Assembly (NCBI GenBank): GCA_021498095.1
Contig: JAIZWK010000001.1
Coordinates: forward strand, 1,380,001 to 1,412,000
Source of the DNA: Candidatus Harpocratesius repetitus
Lineage (GTDB): Archaea; Asgardarchaeota; Lokiarchaeia; Sigyniarchaeales; Promethearchaeaceae
DNA: 32,000 bases
Direction: 5' to 3'
Under the pieces are notes generated by a model that was not told the DNA's origin, did not search any database, and was given only the letters and a program-made list of their open reading frames with translations. Shown here one piece after another: positions 407 to 25,211 of the stretch. Made by a program: the position numbers and the translations under genes. Position 1 is the first letter of the stretch, and every line of letters starts with the position of its first letter.

Positions 407-1480
407 ATGGGAAAAAACATCATGTTAACTTCCACCAAATCTGGTGCAGGAAAAAGCGTTGTGGCTATAGGCTTATTTCTTAAAATGAAAGAAATGGGCA
501 AAAGGATGGGTTATTTCAAACCAATAGGGGATGCAATGACACGACAAGAGAAAAGCAGGACAGATAAGGATGTATCTGTTATCTCTTCTGTTGTGGCGAG
601 AAAATTCTCTAAAGAAGAAATTTGTCCTTATTTCTTAAATCCTGAGTCATATTTAGATGAAATTTTGCCTGAAGATTCAATAGAAATTCAACAGAAAATT
701 AAAGACAGATTTTCCAGTATGGAGGCAAAATCAGATTATATTATCATAGAAGGTAATCATTCTTATAATCAATATTCTCCAGTTAATTTAGATGATCTCT
801 ATTTTGCAAAAGCCTTTAATGCTGATATGGTAATATGTGCTCCAATCAGTGATGATAATGACTTGAATTCGGTTATTTTCTGTTACAAATATATTACATC
901 ACGAAATTTGAATGTTTTAGGTGTTATTCTAAATGCTAGAACAAAGACAGCAGAAGTAAGAATTCAAAAATATCACAAAAAAATCTTAGCGGAACAAGGT
1001 ATTCGAGTAATTGGTTCTCTTCAAAATGTGAAAGATTTAGAGAAACCGACAATTGCTGAAATAATGGATGCTACGGGAGCAAAATTATATTCAGGTGATT
1101 TTTTAAAGGTTAAAAATCATTTAGTAGGATCATTTATTATAGGGGCAATGGGTGCTGATGCTGCTCTAAAAATATTACGAGCAAATATAGATAAATGTGT
1201 TATTACAGGTGGAGATCGGACTGATATTGCATTAGCTGCTTTAGATACAAGTACTAAAGTTATTATTTTTACTGGAAATATGGATCCTGTTCCTCGAGTT
1301 GTAAGTGTTGCACAAGAAAAGGAAGTGCCTTTATTAACAACAAATACAGATACATTTACTGTTGCAGAGCAAATTCGACGAATTAAGACCCATATTCAAC
1401 CAAATGAAATTCAAATATGTCGTGATCAAGTCGAAAATTTGAATATAGATGTTATTTTCTCAGAGAACAATAATAATTAA
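407..1480 (+). CDS. Phosphotransacetylase N-terminal-like protein (BioD-like P-loop + DRTGG domain), paralog 1
   Basis: P-loop TSTKSGAGKS, GYFKPIG, IIIEG, DRTGG motif VITGGDRTDI; no Pta catalytic C-terminal domain. Confidence 0.88.
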   Translation: MGKNIMLTSTKSGAGKSVVAIGLFLKMKEMGKRMGYFKPIGDAMTRQEKSRTDKDVSVISSVVARKFSKEEICPYFLNPESYLDEILPEDSIEIQQKIKDRFSSMEAKSDYIIIEGNHSYNQYSPVNLDDLYFAKAFNADMVICAPISDDNDLNSVIFCYKYITSRNLNVLGVILNARTKTAEVRIQKYHKKILAEQGIRVIGSLQNVKDLEKPTIAEIMDATGAKLYSGDFLKVKNHLVGSFIIGAMGADAALKILRANIDKCVITGGDRTDIALAALDTSTKVIIFTGNMDPVPRVVSVAQEKEVPLLTTNTDTFTVAEQIRRIKTHIQPNEIQICRDQVENLNIDVIFSENNNN

Positions 1481-1496
1481 GGGAGTAAAGGAAAAA

Positions 1497-2561
1497 ATGG
1501 AATCGAAAACAATATTATTATCTTCTACTAAAAGAGGTTCAGGAAAATCTGTTGTTGCCATTGGTGCTTTTTTAAAATATAAAGAAAATGGCTTAAATCC
1601 TGGATATTTTAAACCAATTGGAGATTCATCAACAATTAAGCCTAAAAACTTAACAGATAAAGATGCATCAATTATTATTAGTATTCTTGCCCGAAAATTC
1701 AGCCAAGAACAGATATGTCCACAGTTATTAAATCCTCATTACTTTTTAGATGAAATTCTTCCTGATGAAACGCTTGAAATATTCGAAAAAATCACAGATG
1801 CATTTGAAAATATTGCATCAAAAACAGATGTGATAATCATTGAAGGAAATCATGATTATATGCAGTATTCAGCAATACAATTAGATGATGTTCATATTGC
1901 AAAAAAATTTAATGCTAAAGTTATTATCTGTGCACCTATAGCAAATGATAATGATATTGATGATCTTCTTTCTGCAATAGATTCATTTAAGCAATTTGAT
2001 TGTCAAGTGGGAGGCGTTATACTTAGCCCTTTAAATCCAACAGCTGAACAAAGAATTCGAAATTTGTATATTCCTCTACTTAATAATAGAGATATTTCAG
2101 TAATTGGAGGATTAAAAAACGCAAAAACCTTGGAAAAACCAACAATTGCTGAGATTCTAGATGCTATTGATGGAAAACTTTTAACAGGAGATTTTATTCG
2201 AATTAAGAATAATAAAGTAGATGGTTTTGTAATAGGTGCAATGCATAGTAGTAAAGCTTTAGATTATATTAAACGCGCGCCAAATGTGTGTGTTATTACT
2301 GGGGGAGATAGAACAGATATTGCTCTTAATGCCTTAGAAACACAAATTTCTTTGTTAATCTTTACTGGAAATATCCGACCCGATTCATCAGTTATGTCTA
2401 AAGCTAAAGAAAAACATATTCCCACAATTATCGCTGCTGGAGATACTTTTTCCATAACAGAAAAATTACAGAATATTCATTCTGAAATTCAACCTGATGA
2501 AATTGAAATTTGTTTTGAACAAGTTGATCAAAATATCGATTGGAATGAATTCATCAAGTAA
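1497..2561 (+). CDS. Phosphotransacetylase N-terminal-like protein (BioD-like P-loop + DRTGG domain), paralog 2
   Basis: SSTKRGSGKS, GYFKPIG, VITGGDRTDI; colinear with paralog 1. Start moved to ATG 1497 (GGGAG at 1481-1485; matches the paralog 1 N-terminus). Confidence 0.88.
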   Translation: MESKTILLSSTKRGSGKSVVAIGAFLKYKENGLNPGYFKPIGDSSTIKPKNLTDKDASIIISILARKFSQEQICPQLLNPHYFLDEILPDETLEIFEKITDAFENIASKTDVIIIEGNHDYMQYSAIQLDDVHIAKKFNAKVIICAPIANDNDIDDLLSAIDSFKQFDCQVGGVILSPLNPTAEQRIRNLYIPLLNNRDISVIGGLKNAKTLEKPTIAEILDAIDGKLLTGDFIRIKNNKVDGFVIGAMHSSKALDYIKRAPNVCVITGGDRTDIALNALETQISLLIFTGNIRPDSSVMSKAKEKHIPTIIAAGDTFSITEKLQNIHSEIQPDEIEICFEQVDQNIDWNEFIK

Positions 2562-10831: not shown

Positions 10832-12205
10832 ATGCCTGAAATTCCAGAAGATATTTCTGTCGAACACAATGAAGTTCTAACAAATATTGAAAATCAAGAC
10901 TCTATAATTAAATTTAAACATGCCATTTCCCGATCAATGGCTGAAGATCTCCTAGAAACTCTGCAAACTAAAATAATTCAAGAATACAATTTACGAAATA
11001 TTCAATTGCATATTAATCCCATTTACAATAGATATGAAAATTTAATTGGATTGGAATTTAGTTCTCCTTTATCAAAAGATTTGCGGGATGAATTAAAAGA
11101 GCGAATTAATGAAATAATTCAAGATTTGATGCAGTCAGTTGAAAAAAAACGGAACCACTTCCAAGCAGATATGAAATCTAAAGAACCAATAAGCTTTACA
11201 GAACTATTAGGAACTTTTCGTATCAAAGTAATTTATGTTCTTATTCCTATCTTAATAAGTATTGGAACAGCTATGTTTTTAGGATGGGCTGCAAAGGTAG
11301 AAGCTGATATAAATATTAATGTAGCTCCCTACCCAAATGAGAATAATATTGGAGAAATACTATATAATGGGTTCATGCCAGTTTTAATTTCTGCTGTATT
11401 TATTACTATCATTTATTTATTAATAAAAAAATTTGGAATGATTGCATTCAAAATCATCATGGGAATTGTAATTTTCTTTTATTCTTGGTATGGATTAATA
11501 TTTTTCATAACTGTCTTTTTTACAATTTATCTAAATAAAGTTCCTGAAGAATCAATAAACTTTGCATGGTTTAATGGATTGTATCTTGGTTTTTTCTACG
11601 GCTCAATTATTTTATTTATTATTTTAATGGTCTTTTTCTTTGGAAACAAGTTATCATTAAAACAGCGAAATGCTATTGTATTATTTTATTCAATTTTTAT
11701 GGGAGCGATTATTGGAATTTCGTTACCGACTTGGACAACTTTTGCTTTTGCAATTTTTCTATCCATTTGGGATTTGTTCACTGTATTTAAAGGACCCTTG
11801 GGCAAAATTGGCCAAATGATCCAAGATAATCAGCTGGAAACATATAAAAGAATTAAGAACATGTTAGATGAAGGTAAAATTGGAATTGATCAAGTTGGTG
11901 ATTATGAACAATTCGTTTCTTTGCAAACAAAAAAGGATGAAGAAGGTGAAATTGATTACAAACAAGTAGAAGTTGAATTGGGTTCTGGTGACTTGATTTT
12001 ATATTCTGCCTTAGTTGCTAATGTATTCATCAATTATGGAAGCTGGTTTTTAGCGGGTTTGGTGATCTTTGGTGTGATATTAGGGGCTATATTAACCTTA
12101 TATCTTTTATTATCCAAGAAAAAAATGCTTCCAGCATTACCATTCTCAATGATGTTTGGAATTATATTATTCTTTGTTGGAATTTTACTGCAAAAGATAT
12201 TTTGA
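10832..12205 (+). CDS. Presenilin-like GxGD intramembrane aspartyl protease
   Basis: LSIWDLFTVFKGPL (first Asp at 11771), ELGSGDLILYSAL (GxGD at 11981-11992), KKMLPALPF (PAL at 12131), about 9 TM segments and a soluble N-terminal region of about 125 aa. Confidence 0.9.
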   Translation: MPEIPEDISVEHNEVLTNIENQDSIIKFKHAISRSMAEDLLETLQTKIIQEYNLRNIQLHINPIYNRYENLIGLEFSSPLSKDLRDELKERINEIIQDLMQSVEKKRNHFQADMKSKEPISFTELLGTFRIKVIYVLIPILISIGTAMFLGWAAKVEADININVAPYPNENNIGEILYNGFMPVLISAVFITIIYLLIKKFGMIAFKIIMGIVIFFYSWYGLIFFITVFFTIYLNKVPEESINFAWFNGLYLGFFYGSIILFIILMVFFFGNKLSLKQRNAIVLFYSIFMGAIIGISLPTWTTFAFAIFLSIWDLFTVFKGPLGKIGQMIQDNQLETYKRIKNMLDEGKIGIDQVGDYEQFVSLQTKKDEEGEIDYKQVEVELGSGDLILYSALVANVFINYGSWFLAGLVIFGVILGAILTLYLLLSKKKMLPALPFSMMFGIILFFVGILLQKIF

Positions 12206-18503: not shown

Positions 18504-19208
18504 ATGATATACATTGTTCGCTTCTTTCAAGGAAATGCTTCTAGATTATCATACTTAATTTTTTATTCATTGAATATACTTTTATTTCTTGCAGGTGCTC
18601 TTATCTTAAGTCAATTTTATCCTAATGGATATAATTTTTGGGAAAATACGATAAGCAGTTTAGGAAGTTATAAAAAGAATCCTATTGGTGCATTTTGGTG
18701 GAATTTAATTTTATTTATTTTTGCAATTATATTAAGTGGAAATATTTCCTTTATTTATCAGCAAATTCAAAATTTAAATAATTTTTTGACACTAAAGCAA
18801 AGTAGAAATAAAAGAATTCGAAAAATAAATTTGCTGCTTGTGATTTTCGCCATTGTTGGGATTTTTGGTGTGTCTATTTTTCCTGAAGAACTTGGGGTTA
18901 TTCATGTAATATTTGCAGTTATGTTTTACTTCGGAATCGTTATTTGGCTAAACATTGTCATCTGGTGGGCAATTTCCTTAAAAAGATCTCGTAAAATATT
19001 AAGTATTCCTATAGTATTTTTAGATATTGTTTTTATACTTACTCTTTTTCTACCAGAATTTTCAGTTCCTTTTCTATTCCAGAATTATGCTACCTTTCTG
19101 TTTTCTTTTCCATTTTGGGAATGGTTCTGCTTTTTAGTTATTTATTTTGTTATCGGATACGCTAATTGGTTCGTGCTCTACCTTAAATCAGATACTAAAA
19201 TCAAGTAA
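18504..19208 (+). CDS. DUF998-like membrane protein
   Basis: GYNFWENTISSLG motif, GIFGVSIFPE..HVIFA, multiple TMs; start moved to ATG 18504. Confidence 0.7.
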   Translation: MIYIVRFFQGNASRLSYLIFYSLNILLFLAGALILSQFYPNGYNFWENTISSLGSYKKNPIGAFWWNLILFIFAIILSGNISFIYQQIQNLNNFLTLKQSRNKRIRKINLLLVIFAIVGIFGVSIFPEELGVIHVIFAVMFYFGIVIWLNIVIWWAISLKRSRKILSIPIVFLDIVFILTLFLPEFSVPFLFQNYATFLFSFPFWEWFCFLVIYFVIGYANWFVLYLKSDTKIK

Positions 19209-19285
19209 TTATATATTCCACTTATTCAAGATACAATTAAAAAAACACCTTAAAATTTATTATTCATCTTGAATCAGATACCTTA

Positions 19286-19302
19286 GGGTTAAATATTAAC
19301 CC
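19286..19302. promoter_or_regulatory. Palindrome GGGTTAA-ATA-TTAACCC, candidate operator
   Basis: Perfect 7-3-7 inverted repeat ending 14 nt before the DUF211 start. Confidence 0.35.
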
Positions 19303-19316
19303 AGTGAATTAAAAAA

Positions 19317-19637
19317 ATGTCTAGTGAAAATGAATCAGCTGAAAAACCTATGATCCGACGATTGGTTTTGGATATCTTGAAGCCTTTTGACCCCGAAATT
19401 AATATTGTTGCAAAAGAACTGATTAATCGATGTTCAAGCAGCGATGTTTCGGTCAATATCACTGTTTACGAAGTGGATAAATTAACCACAACCTGTAAGG
19501 TTATAATTGAAGGTACTCATTTAGATTACGATGAAATACAGGAAATCTTAATAAGCATGAATTGTGTTATTCATTCCCTGGACCAAGTTGTAGCAGGAAG
19601 CAAATTGGTTGAAGATATCGATACTCCGCTGGATTAG
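19317..19637 (+). CDS. DUF211 family protein
   Basis: IRRLVLDILKP, VNITVYEVD, IIEG..LDYDEI, VIHSLDQVVAG match the archaeal DUF211 pattern. Confidence 0.85.
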   Translation: MSSENESAEKPMIRRLVLDILKPFDPEINIVAKELINRCSSSDVSVNITVYEVDKLTTTCKVIIEGTHLDYDEIQEILISMNCVIHSLDQVVAGSKLVEDIDTPLD

Positions 19638-19715
19638 TGGACAGGTTTTTTAAAAAAAACTTGAAATCTTTTCGACAATAAAATTTTTACTTTTTATTTT
19701 TATTTTTAATTATAT

Positions 19716-19742
19716 CGGGAAAAATCATCAACAGATTTCCCG
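19716..19742. terminator. Imperfect hairpin between convergent DUF211 and 5S array
   Basis: CGGGAAA(AA)TC...GATTTCCCG inverted repeat flanked by T-rich tracts. Confidence 0.3.
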
Positions 19743-19891
19743 AATTATTATTTTCCTTTAAAAATTTGATAAATATAGTTTAATTAAACTTCTATTCATC
19801 AAAAAATAAATTCAAGCCTACAGGAAAAATCATTTAATTTTTAATTTGTGATGAAAATTTAATATGATAATTATTCAAAATCAGAATGGGA

Positions 19892-20010
19892 GTCTCTCAG
19901 TTTTAAGTTTTGCAATATTCGAGATATCACTACTTACTTAAACGCATCGGAATTTAATTTCTGTGTTCGGAATGGGAACAGATGGAACTTCCGACCTATG
20001 ACCGAGAGAC
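19892..20010 (-). rRNA. rrf: 5S rRNA (copy 1)
   Basis: 119 nt. Helix I GUCUCUCGG/CUGAGAGAC, helix II GUCGGAA/UUCCGAU, helix III and loop C CAUCUGUUCCCAUUCCGAACACAGAA, helix UUUAAGU/ACUUAAA, loop E AGUA, terminal helix GUGAUAU/AUAUUGC. Confidence 0.95.
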
Positions 20011-20031
20011 AATTAATTCAGTAATGCAAAA

Positions 20032-20039
20032 TATTTAAA
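20032..20039 (-). promoter_or_regulatory. TATA box TTTAAATA for 5S copy 1 (repeated at the same offset in each unit)
   Basis: Lies at -29..-22 from the 5S 5' end and is preceded by purine-rich AAGGCAAG (BRE-like). Confidence 0.6.
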
Positions 20040-20265
20040 CTTGCCTTGTCGCGCCCAGTTCCCACCATCCTTTTTGAATTTTATTGAATTGTAATATATT
20101 TGATATTTATTTGATAAATTAAGAAAAATGCAGGAAAATATGATAAATTCATTTTAATTAAATTTCTATTCATCAAAAAATAAATTCAAGCCCACAGGAA
20201 AATTCATTTAATTTTTAATTTGTGATGAAAATTTAATATGATAATTATTCAAAATCAGAATGGGA

Positions 20266-20384
20266 GTCTCTCAGTTTTAAGTTTTGCAATATTCGAGATA
20301 TCACTACTTACTTAAACGCATCGGAATTTAATTTCTGTGTTCGGAATGGGAACAGATGGAACTTCCGACCTATGACCGAGAGAC
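20266..20384 (-). rRNA. rrf: 5S rRNA (copy 2)
   Basis: Identical to copy 1. Confidence 0.95.
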
Positions 20385-20640
20385 AATTAATTCAGTAATG
20401 CAAAATATTTAAACTTGCCTTGTCGCGCCCAGTTCCCACCATCCTTTTTGAATTTTATTGAAATGTAATATATTTGATATTTATTTGATAAATTAAGAAA
20501 AATGCAGGAAAATATGATAAATTCATTTTAATTAAATTTTTATTCATCAAAAAATAAATTCAAGCCTACAGGAAAAATCATTTAATTTTTAATTTGGGAT
20601 GAAAATTTAATATTATAAATTATTTAAAATCAGAATGGGA

Positions 20641-20759
20641 GTCTCTCAGTTTTAAGTTTTGCAATATTCGAGATATCACTACTTACTTAAACGCATCGGA
20701 ATTTAATTTCTGTGTTCGGAATGGGAACAGATGGAACTTCCGACCTATGACCGAGAGAC
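20641..20759 (-). rRNA. rrf: 5S rRNA (copy 3)
   Basis: Identical to copies 1 and 2. Confidence 0.95.
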
Positions 20760-21307
20760 AATTAATTCAGTAATGCAAAATATTTAAACTTGCCTTGTCG
20801 TGCCCAGTTCCCACCATCCTTTTTGAATTTTATTGAAATGTAATATATTTGATATTTAACTGATAAATTAAGAAAAATAATTAGCATAGTAAAAGGAAAA
20901 TTGAAAAAAGAAAAATAAAAAAAAAATTGTCTTTTTGGTTTAATTCTACTTTCTTCGAGGCCAACTAATTTTTGTTTATTTACAATTTCGATCATGAGGT
21001 ATCAGGAAATTTTATATTCCATTTGTTCTATTTCTAACAATTTTTAACCGAAATATGCATGTGATTTTTTTAACTTATCGAAATTCATTATTAACTGAAT
21101 TCTCTTATTATAATATTGATTACTCGTCAATAACTTTAATCACTTAATCATTTGAGTTAACGCGCTTTGATATAGATATACTATTTCTTATTTATAAGAA
21201 TTATAGAAAATTTTTCCACACAAAAAACCAAAAAAAATGAACATCTAGTTAAAAAGAAATTGAAAAAATATAATTTCTCAAGATAAGTTCCATACTTTTA
21301 TGGACTT

Positions 21308-22417
21308 CTAAAGAAAATCTTGGGTGCAGTACTGTAATGCATTTAGGAATTCGAAAGCAATGCCGAAAATATGTGGAGAGAGTTCCGTTCGGGGATCATG
21401 TTCTAGCGAAAAATAATGTGGAATATCCTTTTCTTTTAATAGATCATGCATATTTTGTGCAAAAGAAAATAAACCATACTCATCATGAGAATCGCAAGAC
21501 AACCAAATTTTCATAGAACGCAAGTTTTCTGGATTTTCTTCAAATATACGTAGTAAATCATATTTCTGCCAGTTTTTCCAAGCCTGTTCATCATATGAGA
21601 TTAAATTTCCTTTAGAATCGAACTTTAAACTTGGAAGAAGGGGTCTATTGCCTGAAAAAATCATGTCTTGAGTCTCTAAAATATCTTCAAACATCATTTT
21701 TCCAAATTTTTGAGCTAATCGATGTCCCAGTAAACGTGAAATTAATGGAACAACCAAGTCCCATTGTAGTAGTTCTAATAGTGTATTAGCAGGGCTCAAG
21801 GCGGCAAATGCAGAAAAAAGATTAGAGAATTTATGTCCCAAATAAAGTGCGCCAAAACCACCCATTGAACCACCTATCAAGACGCGGTGTTCACGATCTG
21901 GAATGGTACGAAAGTGTGAGTCTATATATTTGATAATATCTTGAGAAATATAATTCGCATAATTACCAGAAAAAGGGGAATTAACATAAAAACTTCCTTT
22001 TGTTGAGCGGGCACCATCAAGACCTTTCAATCCACCTTTAACTCTGAGATGTAAACTTGCATCAGGTTGAACTATAATCATTGGTGGAAGCTTATGGTGT
22101 TTAATCATTTTGTCAATATGAATATACGTGGGGACTTTATCAATATGAAGTCCGTTTCCAATTGATTTCATTAATATTTTTATTGGCTGCCAAGAAATCA
22201 AATCCAAATCGGGCATTAAAAGCCAATTTCCTGCATGTCCATCATATCCATGTAAAACATAAACCACTGGATAATGATTATCAAAATTTTGATAATAATC
22301 TGGTGGAAGATAAACGCTAACAATTCGATTTACAGGACTTTTTAGTGGATTAGTTTCTAAACTACGAGAATGTATCGTGTTTAGCAAATATCGGGGGTGT
22401 TTTGATTGATATTCCAT
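21308..22417 (-). CDS. Putative esterase (alpha/beta hydrolase, Fes/antigen-85-like)
   Basis: VYLPPDY, YPVVYVLHG, nucleophile elbow GGSMGG, candidate Asp (HDEYG) and His (SPHIFG); start at ATG 22417. Confidence 0.88.
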   Translation of the reverse strand: MEYQSKHPRYLLNTIHSRSLETNPLKSPVNRIVSVYLPPDYYQNFDNHYPVVYVLHGYDGHAGNWLLMPDLDLISWQPIKILMKSIGNGLHIDKVPTYIHIDKMIKHHKLPPMIIVQPDASLHLRVKGGLKGLDGARSTKGSFYVNSPFSGNYANYISQDIIKYIDSHFRTIPDREHRVLIGGSMGGFGALYLGHKFSNLFSAFAALSPANTLLELLQWDLVVPLISRLLGHRLAQKFGKMMFEDILETQDMIFSGNRPLLPSLKFDSKGNLISYDEQAWKNWQKYDLLRIFEENPENLRSMKIWLSCDSHDEYGLFSFAQNMHDLLKEKDIPHYFSLEHDPRTELSPHIFGIAFEFLNALQYCTQDFL

Positions 22418-22620
22418 AATAATGACCAAAATTGTGGAAAAAACTGTAAATTACAAACGATCAAACTCAAATAACTTGATCTATTAAATGAAGAGTACTT
22501 TTAGATGAATGAATATCTATGTCCATATGTTTTAAATTTAGAATATGAATCGATTGAATAATAAATGATTAATTTTTTCCTTTTTTTATTTTTTATAGAA
22601 TGTTGATTTCTTTATTCCAG

Positions 22621-23196
22621 TTATTGATTTGTCTCCTGCATTTGCATATATTCTTTAAAAAGTCTATTTGATTCTTCCAATAATAATTCTGAAATTAATG
22701 AAAATGATCTTTCGACATTTTTACCTGTTTTTGATGAAAGTTCGATATGTTGCACACATGAATGTTTCATTGCAATTTCTTGAGCATATTCTGGTGAAAC
22801 CTTACGATATGATTCTAAATCGCATTTAGAACCAATTAAAAAAATAGGTATGTTTCCTGCATTTTTTCTTACAATTTCTAACCAGATTCCAATGCTTTCT
22901 AATGATTTTTCAGATGTAATATCGTAAAGAAAAAGTGCTGCATTTGATCCCTTGCTATATGTGGGCAGTAAAAAGCGAAATCTCTCTTCACCGCCAAAAT
23001 CCCAAATTTGAAGCTTTACTTTTTTACCATTAACTAATCTGACTTTTTTGGAAAAGAAATCAACGCCAATAGTAAGTCGGGGTGAATCAATGAACACACC
23101 TGTTATATATCGATGAGTTAGACTAGTTTTGCCAACTGATGCATCACCTAACATGAGAAGTTTGTAAGTAAAGTCTGTGCTCAATATTGTCACCAT
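22621..23196 (-). CDS. Rab-like small GTPase (Ras superfamily)
   Basis: G1 GDASVGKT, G2 TIGVDF, G3 WDFGGE, G4 SKCD, G5 SSK; RabF-like IGVDF, KLQIW, RFRFLL, YSKGS, LYDIT. Confidence 0.95.
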   Translation of the reverse strand: MVTILSTDFTYKLLMLGDASVGKTSLTHRYITGVFIDSPRLTIGVDFFSKKVRLVNGKKVKLQIWDFGGEERFRFLLPTYSKGSNAALFLYDITSEKSLESIGIWLEIVRKNAGNIPIFLIGSKCDLESYRKVSPEYAQEIAMKHSCVQHIELSSKTGKNVERSFSLISELLLEESNRLFKEYMQMQETNQ

Positions 23197-23615
23197 ATAA
23201 AGATTATTTTTTTTCTAAGAATAGGAAATATCTGGCCGTTTTTGAACGGGATAATTGGAATATAAGAATTCGAATCCTACAAAATAATATGTGGCACCAA
23301 CTAATAAAGATTTATTCGATAAAGATAAAGTTAGAGTGAAAGAAAAGTTATTATAATATACTTAAAATAGATATCAAAAAGAAGCAATAGAAACGAATTA
23401 TTGTAGCCAAGAGTGAGATTTATTTTCATCGATAAAAAATTCATTCTCAAATAAACACTATAACCTCTTGGCTATTGTTATTAACTTAATTTCGATAATT
23501 AATATTTACTTTAATCAGAAAGAAAAGAAAGTATGAAAATCAATAAAAAATATTCAATCTATTGGAAAATACAAATAAAATAAGAAGAAATCAAAATTTG
23601 AAAAAATTAGGTTGT

Positions 23616-25211
23616 TTAGAATATAGTATCAAGCCTTTCATGGCGATTTTCTAAAAATGGGGGCTGAAATGAGATAGTTGAGAGTGGTTTTGATAGATAA
23701 TTATTTTGTTCCTTATGAATGATATCAAGATGATTAATGTGATTAATTAATTTTGCTTCAGGAAAATTTAATTGGGTTAAAAGTGGTTTTAAAATAAATT
23801 CAACATCTTTTTCAGAAAGATGCGCACGTAAATGGGCTTCTATCTGGGGGAGTGGTAAAGTGCATTGTGGTTCAATGACTGCTAATGGCGTTAATTGATT
23901 GATGATTTCAATAAATTTCTTCTGATATTCTGATAAATTTAATTGAGAAGGACAAAACATTTCAAAGCGAACAGGTAAATCTGAAGAAGATAATCTAAGA
24001 TATGAATATAGGACATGATATTTTATTTTTATGCTGAATAATAAAGAGATTAATTGAGTTTCATTTTTATTCGGTGCACAATTAAAATCTTGAGTAATTG
24101 TAGATAATGAAGGTGGATTTATTTTGAATTCTCTATTTTCTTGAATGATTACCGTACGGGAACCTGGATGCATAATTCGATATAACAGTTCATAATCTGA
24201 AAATGCCATTAATTCTTTTCTGAAATTAAACTGCATTAATGAAGGCCCAGATAAATTAACTCTTGTTGTATTTAGTTTTTTTAATAGGATCGGAAGACTT
24301 CGGATAATCAGATCTCGTAGTTGATTTGTTCGAGAATCTTTCACAGAACCAATTAAGGCAATATTATTAGTGGCGCATAAATCATAGAGATGATGATAAC
24401 TATATATAACATCAAGACATAATTGGGGAAACTTCTGTATTATTCCATAAAATCGACTACTAGGGGGAAGATGCACACTTCCATCAAGTATTATTATATT
24501 TGGGAAAGAATTTTCAGAATTTGGGATTAATGATGATTCATGTGCACATTTTTCAATATATTGTATTATCATCGAGTTTTCAGCTAAAATTCTACGAAAA
24601 TTAGCAACAGCGGAAAGATTTTGAGAACGATGAATACCAAAGTCAGAATAGAGTGTAAAATTTTCATCCTTTTCAACTGCAGGAAAATAGGATATTTTAG
24701 GATGAGAAGGTTCCGTAAAATCATATTCTACGACAACTGCCTTAATTAGAGTCAGATCTAATCCTTGATATTCCCTGATTCCAAGACCTCCATCAACAGC
24801 TGCGATTTTTTTCCCTTTGAGAATTTTCATATCTGGAATTGCAGTATTGGGCAGAGGCTGAAAAAAAGTAGACTCCGTAAATGGATGAAAAGTTGATTTT
24901 CCATATTGAGTTAAGTCCAAAAAAGGGTGAAAGCAGAATTCACTACAGAAAACATCTAAAAATTTTCTTCTTTCTTCTAAATGTGTTCGTATTGCTTGAA
25001 TTTGAGCTTGAAGATCTAATGAAAGTAGTTCTATTCGAGAGTGAAAAGATTTTTTTTTAAAATATTGTAGCGGATAATTACTAAAATTTTCATTTTCTAA
25101 ATTATTTTTCTTGTATGATTTGCTTTGAGAAGTTGAAACAGGAGAAAAATATGATTCTTCCCATTTAATAAAATTACGCGCCATTAAGCATTCAAACAAA
25201 GGAATTTCCAT
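23616..25211 (-). CDS. nurA: NurA-family 5'-3' nuclease
   Basis: IAAVDGG, IILDGSV, GSVKDSR, VRFE, LPLPQIEAH..AH follow the NurA motif order. Confidence 0.8.
   Translation of the reverse strand: MEIPLFECLMARNFIKWEESYFSPVSTSQSKSYKKNNLENENFSNYPLQYFKKKSFHSRIELLSLDLQAQIQAIRTHLEERRKFLDVFCSEFCFHPFLDLTQYGKSTFHPFTESTFFQPLPNTAIPDMKILKGKKIAAVDGGLGIREYQGLDLTLIKAVVVEYDFTEPSHPKISYFPAVEKDENFTLYSDFGIHRSQNLSAVANFRRILAENSMIIQYIEKCAHESSLIPNSENSFPNIIILDGSVHLPPSSRFYGIIQKFPQLCLDVIYSYHHLYDLCATNNIALIGSVKDSRTNQLRDLIIRSLPILLKKLNTTRVNLSGPSLMQFNFRKELMAFSDYELLYRIMHPGSRTVIIQENREFKINPPSLSTITQDFNCAPNKNETQLISLLFSIKIKYHVLYSYLRLSSSDLPVRFEMFCPSQLNLSEYQKKFIEIINQLTPLAVIEPQCTLPLPQIEAHLRAHLSEKDVEFILKPLLTQLNFPEAKLINHINHLDIIHKEQNNYLSKPLSTISFQPPFLENRHERLDTIF

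Follow-up and report, generated by a model that had tools for sequence, protein, structure and literature searches.

Several described arrangements of 5S rRNA genes bear on the locus considered here. The eukaryotic 5S rDNA arrays, e.g. those of Xenopus, Drosophila and Arabidopsis, consist of a gene of ~120 nt plus spacer repeated head to tail away from the large rRNA genes. Every unit has a promoter and ends transcription at T-runs, and the genes are uniform where the spacers vary; the arrays run to tens to thousands of copies, and their Pol III promoter is an internal control region used with TFIIIA. A different type of example is local duplication within bacterial rrn operons. The two 5S genes of E. 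coli rrnD and the tandem 23S-5S of Borrelia burgdorferi also represent a raised 5S gene count, with the duplicates being co-transcribed with 23S and cut out by processing in the absence of promoters of their own. Archaea have a single RNA polymerase, and in Thermoproteota and those other Asgard archaea with unlinked rRNA genes 5S is an independent unit far from 16S and 23S, present singly or as dispersed copies; a TATA box upstream of such unlinked genes is also known outside the family treated below. An unlinked 5S gene is likewise known in Thermoplasma acidophilum (Tu and Zillig 1982, as cited in PMC8997704).

The locus at issue, in an Asgard (Lokiarchaeal) genome as had been surmised from its sequence, has three 5S genes stacked head to tail, each behind an upstream TATA box, within a window of 32 kb (the whole stretch of DNA analysed, C1:1380001-1412000 of a single record of 4,361,485 bp). 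With the stand-alone archaeal genes it shares independence from 16S and 23S and differs from them in the stacking; with the bacterial duplicates it shares the local gain of 5S genes and differs in having a promoter for each. Very probably the array is real and came about when an ordinary stand-alone archaeal 5S transcription unit was triplicated locally, in tandem; dosage is a possible reason for its retention. None of the components is new, and it is the stand-alone arrangement of three units that is unusual among prokaryotes. Tandem 5S genes of Asgard archaea, Lokiarchaeum or Harpocratesius did not come up in a literature search, and a tandem stand-alone 5S array in Lokiarchaeia is apparently undescribed.

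The array, its flanks and the other rRNA genes

Tandem Repeats Finder (TRF) reported a single array in the window, with a period of 374, 3.0 copies and 97% matches (Table 1), in keeping with the ~2.9 units of 374-375 bp seen initially. Alignment of the units gives a mean column identity of 97%, and the units are 97-99% alike, in gene and spacer both. The Rfam search gave three minus-strand matches to RF00001 (19892-20009, 20266-20383, 20641-20758), each of them full length and, at 64.5 bits, above the gathering score of 38. Counting an extra 5' G that completes the 10-bp helix I, the 119-nt genes A, B and C are letter-identical, as the preliminary description had it. The fold of copy B is a three-way junction at -30.6 kcal/mol (z -3.73), and none of 200 shuffled sequences was as stable. 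The spacer differences originally listed are all present, and with about six more columns the repeated part has 12 variable columns, none of them inside the gene (P ~0.007, on the assumption that changes fall uniformly).

Table 1. Features of the 5S array and its flanks; positions are those of the window
Feature	Position	Strand	Basis
Complete array (3.0 units of 374-375 bp, head to tail)	19761..20878	-	TRF; unit alignment
5S rRNA gene copy A, first transcribed	20641..20759	-	RF00001 64.5 bits, model 1-120
5S rRNA gene copy B	20266..20384	-	RF00001 64.5 bits; fold with 10-bp closing helix
5S rRNA gene copy C	19892..20010	-	RF00001 64.5 bits; sequence same as A and B
TATA box TTTAAATA, unit A, -29..-22 from 5' G	20781..20788	-	read from sequence
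TATA box TTTAAATA, unit B, -29..-22 from 5' G	20406..20413	-	read from sequence
TATA box TTTAAATA, unit C, -29..-22 from 5' G	20032..20039	-	read from sequence
First T-run TTTT, +12..+15 behind copy A, putative terminator	20626..20629	-	read from sequence
TTTT equivalent, unit B	20251-20254	-	read from sequence
TTTT equivalent, unit C	19877-19880	-	read from sequence
31-nt G+C-rich block abutting TATA box upstream, unit A, one G>A change	20789..20819	-	
31-nt G+C-rich block, unit B	20414-20444	-	
31-nt G+C-rich block, unit C	20040-20070	-	
Upstream flank, esterase-family gene	21308..22429	-	Pfam PF00756
Downstream flank, DUF211 gene, convergent with array	19317..19637	+	Pfam PF02680, 1.3e-26

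The spacers have no ORF of more than 31 aa, and a box C/D layout is not seen in them by eye. With permissive Rfam thresholds, 5S was all that turned up in 19000-21600; a DUF805b match in the same interval, at 16 bits, was set aside as far under its cut-off. No tRNA or further Rfam family is above threshold in the 32-kb window, which upholds the earlier remark that 16S, 23S and tRNA genes are absent from it. The gene order upstream, NurA - Ras-like GTPase - esterase - 5S, matches that of a genome of the same genus (G002). Elsewhere in the window are an ORF with a C-terminal presenilin-family match (10832-12205, plus strand; PF01080, 1.2e-19) and two adjoining, overlapping paralogous genes, each with AAA_26 and DRTGG domains (407-2561, plus strand).

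A genome-wide search with RF00001, part of a count of rRNA genes that the preliminary description had called for, gave exactly three 5S matches, all in the array (~1.40 Mb). The two 16S and two 23S genes are at 0.72, 0.80 and 2.30 Mb, hundreds of kb away, and the array is stand-alone, as first described. The description of a promoter for each unit also holds. One 16S/23S set is unlinked (C1:724577 and 802841, with 78 kb between), and the other (C1:2300729-2305614) has the reversed order 23S -> 16S with 287 bp separating the two. The two 16S copies are 99.87% alike. Both rRNA layouts are also present in Ca. Lokiarchaeum ossiferum, which has two 23S-then-16S units and one pair ~81 kb apart. The record itself has 31.0% G+C and is a scaffold with one 10-N gap outside the array. 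Ca. Harpocratesius repetitus FW102, described as a Lokiarchaeote from a long-read Canu assembly of two contigs that were then scaffolded, has two 16S/23S sets of 99% identity, and its describers state that 5S genes were not predictable (Wu et al. 2022; PMC8813620). These features fit the present record well, and its genome is probably that of FW102; if so, the array is not described there.

Promoter, upstream block and T-runs

For comparison of promoters, 10 family genomes provided 19 5S sites, anchored at position 1 of the Rfam model. Every one of the 19 has a TTTA-type box beginning at -31..-29, so that a TATA box ~26 nt upstream of 5S is found in every family genome with a detected 5S, and a T/C-rich tract directly follows every one of these genes; the remaining upstream sequence is unalignable between genera. 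Since the box is conserved at every site, single-copy genomes included, a private upstream promoter and a stand-alone unit are the norm for the family. The early view of these two features as part of a eukaryote-like organisation is not supported, and it is the tandem multiplication alone that is unusual.

The position-conserved upstream TATA box points, as far as sequence goes, to ordinary archaeal initiation. Each unit would probably be transcribed separately by the single archaeal RNA polymerase, with a TBP/TFB-type TATA box at -29..-22 placing the start at or beside the mature 5' end, and with all three copies presumably active. Transcription would stop at the T-runs shortly behind the gene. 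The nearest of these in the array, of four T, is the weakest in the family, the T/C tracts of relatives being stronger, and longer runs (T5, T6) are present within ~100 nt behind the array's genes. Roughly 150-240 bp of untranscribed, A+T-rich spacer would then be left per unit.

The 31-nt block that abuts the TATA box has ~65% G+C in contrast to 27% for the spacer, and is a candidate binding site for a regulator. In a search that was genome-wide and took in the upstream regions of 16S and 23S, the array alone was found to have it, and it is absent from the upstream regions of relatives' 5S genes. By eye, the block could form a 7-bp pairing with the 3' trailer; this was discarded given that the block sits upstream of the TATA box. 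Also put aside was a TTTAAAT...TTTGCATT motif seen both at the 5S promoters and upstream of one 16S gene, with 7 genome sites compared to ~3 expected, which is not significant.

5S copies in relatives and in other lineages

Multiple 5S copies are present in at least five of 14 genomes of the same Lokiarchaeal family, with diverged spacers and conserved gene-plus-promoter blocks. The clean pair is that of G008, where two identical 5S genes, 363 bp apart, are each repeated together with the promoter as part of a 217-nt block. In G002, of the array's own genus, one 5S is at a contig end behind NurA - Ras-like GTPase - esterase, the array's gene order, and a second is near the start of another contig; a ~133-bp tandem repeat between the copies breaks the assembly (contigs C73 and C40; L020 3900-4075 and L019 1-100), and the overlap of the contigs via this repeat puts two direct copies ~1.2 kb apart. 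The 5S genes of cultured Ca. Lokiarchaeum ossiferum Loki-B35 (G010, CP104013.1) number three: two direct copies, 920 bp apart, enclose an opposite-strand DUF1499 gene (L010 1777-2244, about 856.9-857.4 kb of CP104013.1), and a lone one adjoins the NurA-GTPase pair. In G005, which also has three, a 273-aa ORF lies between two copies that are 1259 bp apart; the closed 4.3-Mb genome G011 has one. With regard to sequence, the 5S of the array genome, identical among its own copies, has ~78% identity to that of G002.

The pairs in G008, G002, L. ossiferum and G005 are, like the array, direct repeats of 5S gene and promoter (85-99% identity), in the case of G002 and G008 also in a syntenic NurA-GTPase neighbourhood. 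They differ from it in having two copies each, with just the gene-plus-promoter block repeated and with non-homologous spacers or a protein gene between the copies. TRF returned nothing on these loci because only part of each period repeats; a separate repeat search did find the blocks. The neighbourhood of NurA-like gene, Ras-family small GTPase and 5S is itself kept in at least four genera of the family (window 21308-25211; L020, L021, L022, L013), with inverted 5S orientation in some and an inserted esterase gene in the array's genus.

A look for such arrays elsewhere, also suggested at the outset, took in Asgard, Thermoproteota, Thermoplasmatota and Verrucomicrobiota. In the samples searched 5S pairs are rare, though a clean pair exists in one unrelated Thermoplasmatota genome. 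Given that the sampled genomes are mostly short-read MAGs, which collapse repeats, the tandem frequencies are lower bounds. Among 151 Asgard genomes at least 85% complete, nearby multiple 5S is limited to the array's family, with no tandem 5S found in the 137 outside it; many genomes of this sample have no 5S match at all. Of 151 Thermoproteota genomes, 147 have a 5S match and about nine have two dispersed copies, with no tandem 5S among the matches listed. The single clean Thermoplasmatota pair (1 of 121 genomes; G404, C1:1001349-1001709, L039 7350-7710) comprises two identical stand-alone 5S genes, head to tail at a 239-bp period and each with a TATA-like box, with no rRNA or tRNA gene in the surrounding 10 kb. 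It resembles the array in these features and is unlike it in copy number, two, in its shorter spacer and in coming from an unrelated phylum, which makes it an independent event. The pair in one of 101 Verrucomicrobiota genomes (G467) is of a canonical 5S and a divergent 5S-like copy 234 bp away. The pair is at C20:39600-39935, its divergent copy scoring 58.7 bits over model positions 7-113, and there is a second such divergent copy at C2:253874-253975.

Origin, retention and resemblance to eukaryotic arrays

The copy number of three is as in the deposited assembly, and it is very unlikely that the long-read assembler or polishing inflated a true count of one or two, even though the record is a scaffold and short-read (Logan) contigs break inside the repeat with none spanning the array. 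The three units carry distinct combinations of the 12 variants, which sustains the initial contention that they are real copies and not an assembly echo, and at 1.1 kb the array is far shorter than long reads, the likely source assembly having been made with Canu from such reads (PMC8813620). Independent assemblies of relatives, including the closed genome of cultured L. ossiferum, also have two nearby copies. A k-mer depth of 41.5 for a 280-nt contig within the unit, about twice the 19.2 of a 37-kb flank contig, hints weakly at a copy number above one; a contig joint from 19659 to 20626 in run X3 is ambiguous because of the repeat. With real copies, a transient neutral duplication, with a single copy of consequence and the rest recent passengers that have no dosage role and will be lost, has more in its favor but still seems unlikely. 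The triplication could be recent and neutral: the likeness of the units over gene and spacer alike is as would be seen soon after duplication, and fits youth as well as it does homogenisation, and the 5S count of three exceeds the two of 23S. Against this are the lack of changes in the gene compared to 12 in the spacers and the recurrence of multiple 5S in the family. Recurrent copies, diverged spacers and conserved gene-plus-promoter blocks together suggest that duplicates are retained.

In the favored explanation, triplication of an ordinary stand-alone unit, the copies would most likely have arisen by unequal recombination or replication slippage, with gene and core promoter kept identical by purifying selection, gene conversion or both. 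The extra copies may plausibly raise 5S supply for a genome whose 16S and 23S genes are doubled and unlinked. Retention for dosage is plausible because 5S is transcribed apart from the large rRNAs, themselves duplicated, the evidence being anecdotal: the family's three single-record genomes have 16S:23S:5S counts of 1:1:1 (G011), 2:2:3 (the array genome) and 3:3:3 (L. ossiferum), a match that at 3:2 is inexact. A more far-reaching version, that the family repeatedly multiplies its independent 5S unit locally, tracking the count of unlinked 16S and 23S genes, such that dosage balancing is a lineage trait, is a speculation to which we would give rather low odds.

The preliminary description had called the organisation eukaryote-like. 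The observation on which this was based is confirmed and, the likeness being limited to layout, the interpretation is partly supported. Head-to-tail gene-plus-spacer units away from the large rRNA genes are present, as are one promoter per unit, uniform genes, varying spacers and, putatively, T-run termination. Eukaryotic arrays have tens to thousands of copies and an internal control region with TFIIIA, whereas here there are three copies, with none elsewhere in the genome, and a standard archaeal upstream TATA box for a single polymerase; nothing in the array points to an internal promoter of the Pol III type. Uniform genes with varying spacers are explained equally well by recent or independent duplication as by concerted evolution. 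Nor is the layout unique, and its presence as a clean stand-alone pair in Thermoplasmatota implies that it arises by convergence. An evolutionary link, with the Asgard array as forerunner or homologue of the independently transcribed 5S arrays of eukaryotes, is thus hardly credible, notwithstanding the shared layout and the confinement of the tendency, within the Asgard sample, to one Lokiarchaeal family. The upstream promoter is the same in single-copy relatives, the closed family genome G011 has one 5S, the other 137 Asgard genomes searched provided no tandem copies, and the relatives' repeat units are not alike in length or in what their spacers contain, which fits separate events. Nor are Lokiarchaeia usually regarded as the lineage nearest to eukaryotes (see the discussion in PMC8997704).

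From a practical perspective, short-read MAGs would be expected to collapse such arrays or break contigs at them, as in G002 and G006. If the genome is that of FW102, a gap in 5S annotation is filled, and the L. ossiferum paper similarly gives three 16S and three 23S copies and does not mention 5S (PMC9834061). The array is a new data point for the debate on Asgard rRNA gene organisation and eukaryogenesis (PMC8997704), with the same layout in Thermoplasmatota being a caution against reading layout analogy as ancestry. Were dosage balancing by tandem 5S amplification indeed a trait of the lineage, it would be a solution that eukaryotes took to extremes. For the family itself, 16S, 23S and 5S each come from a unit of their own, and the copy number of the last seems to shift by local duplication.
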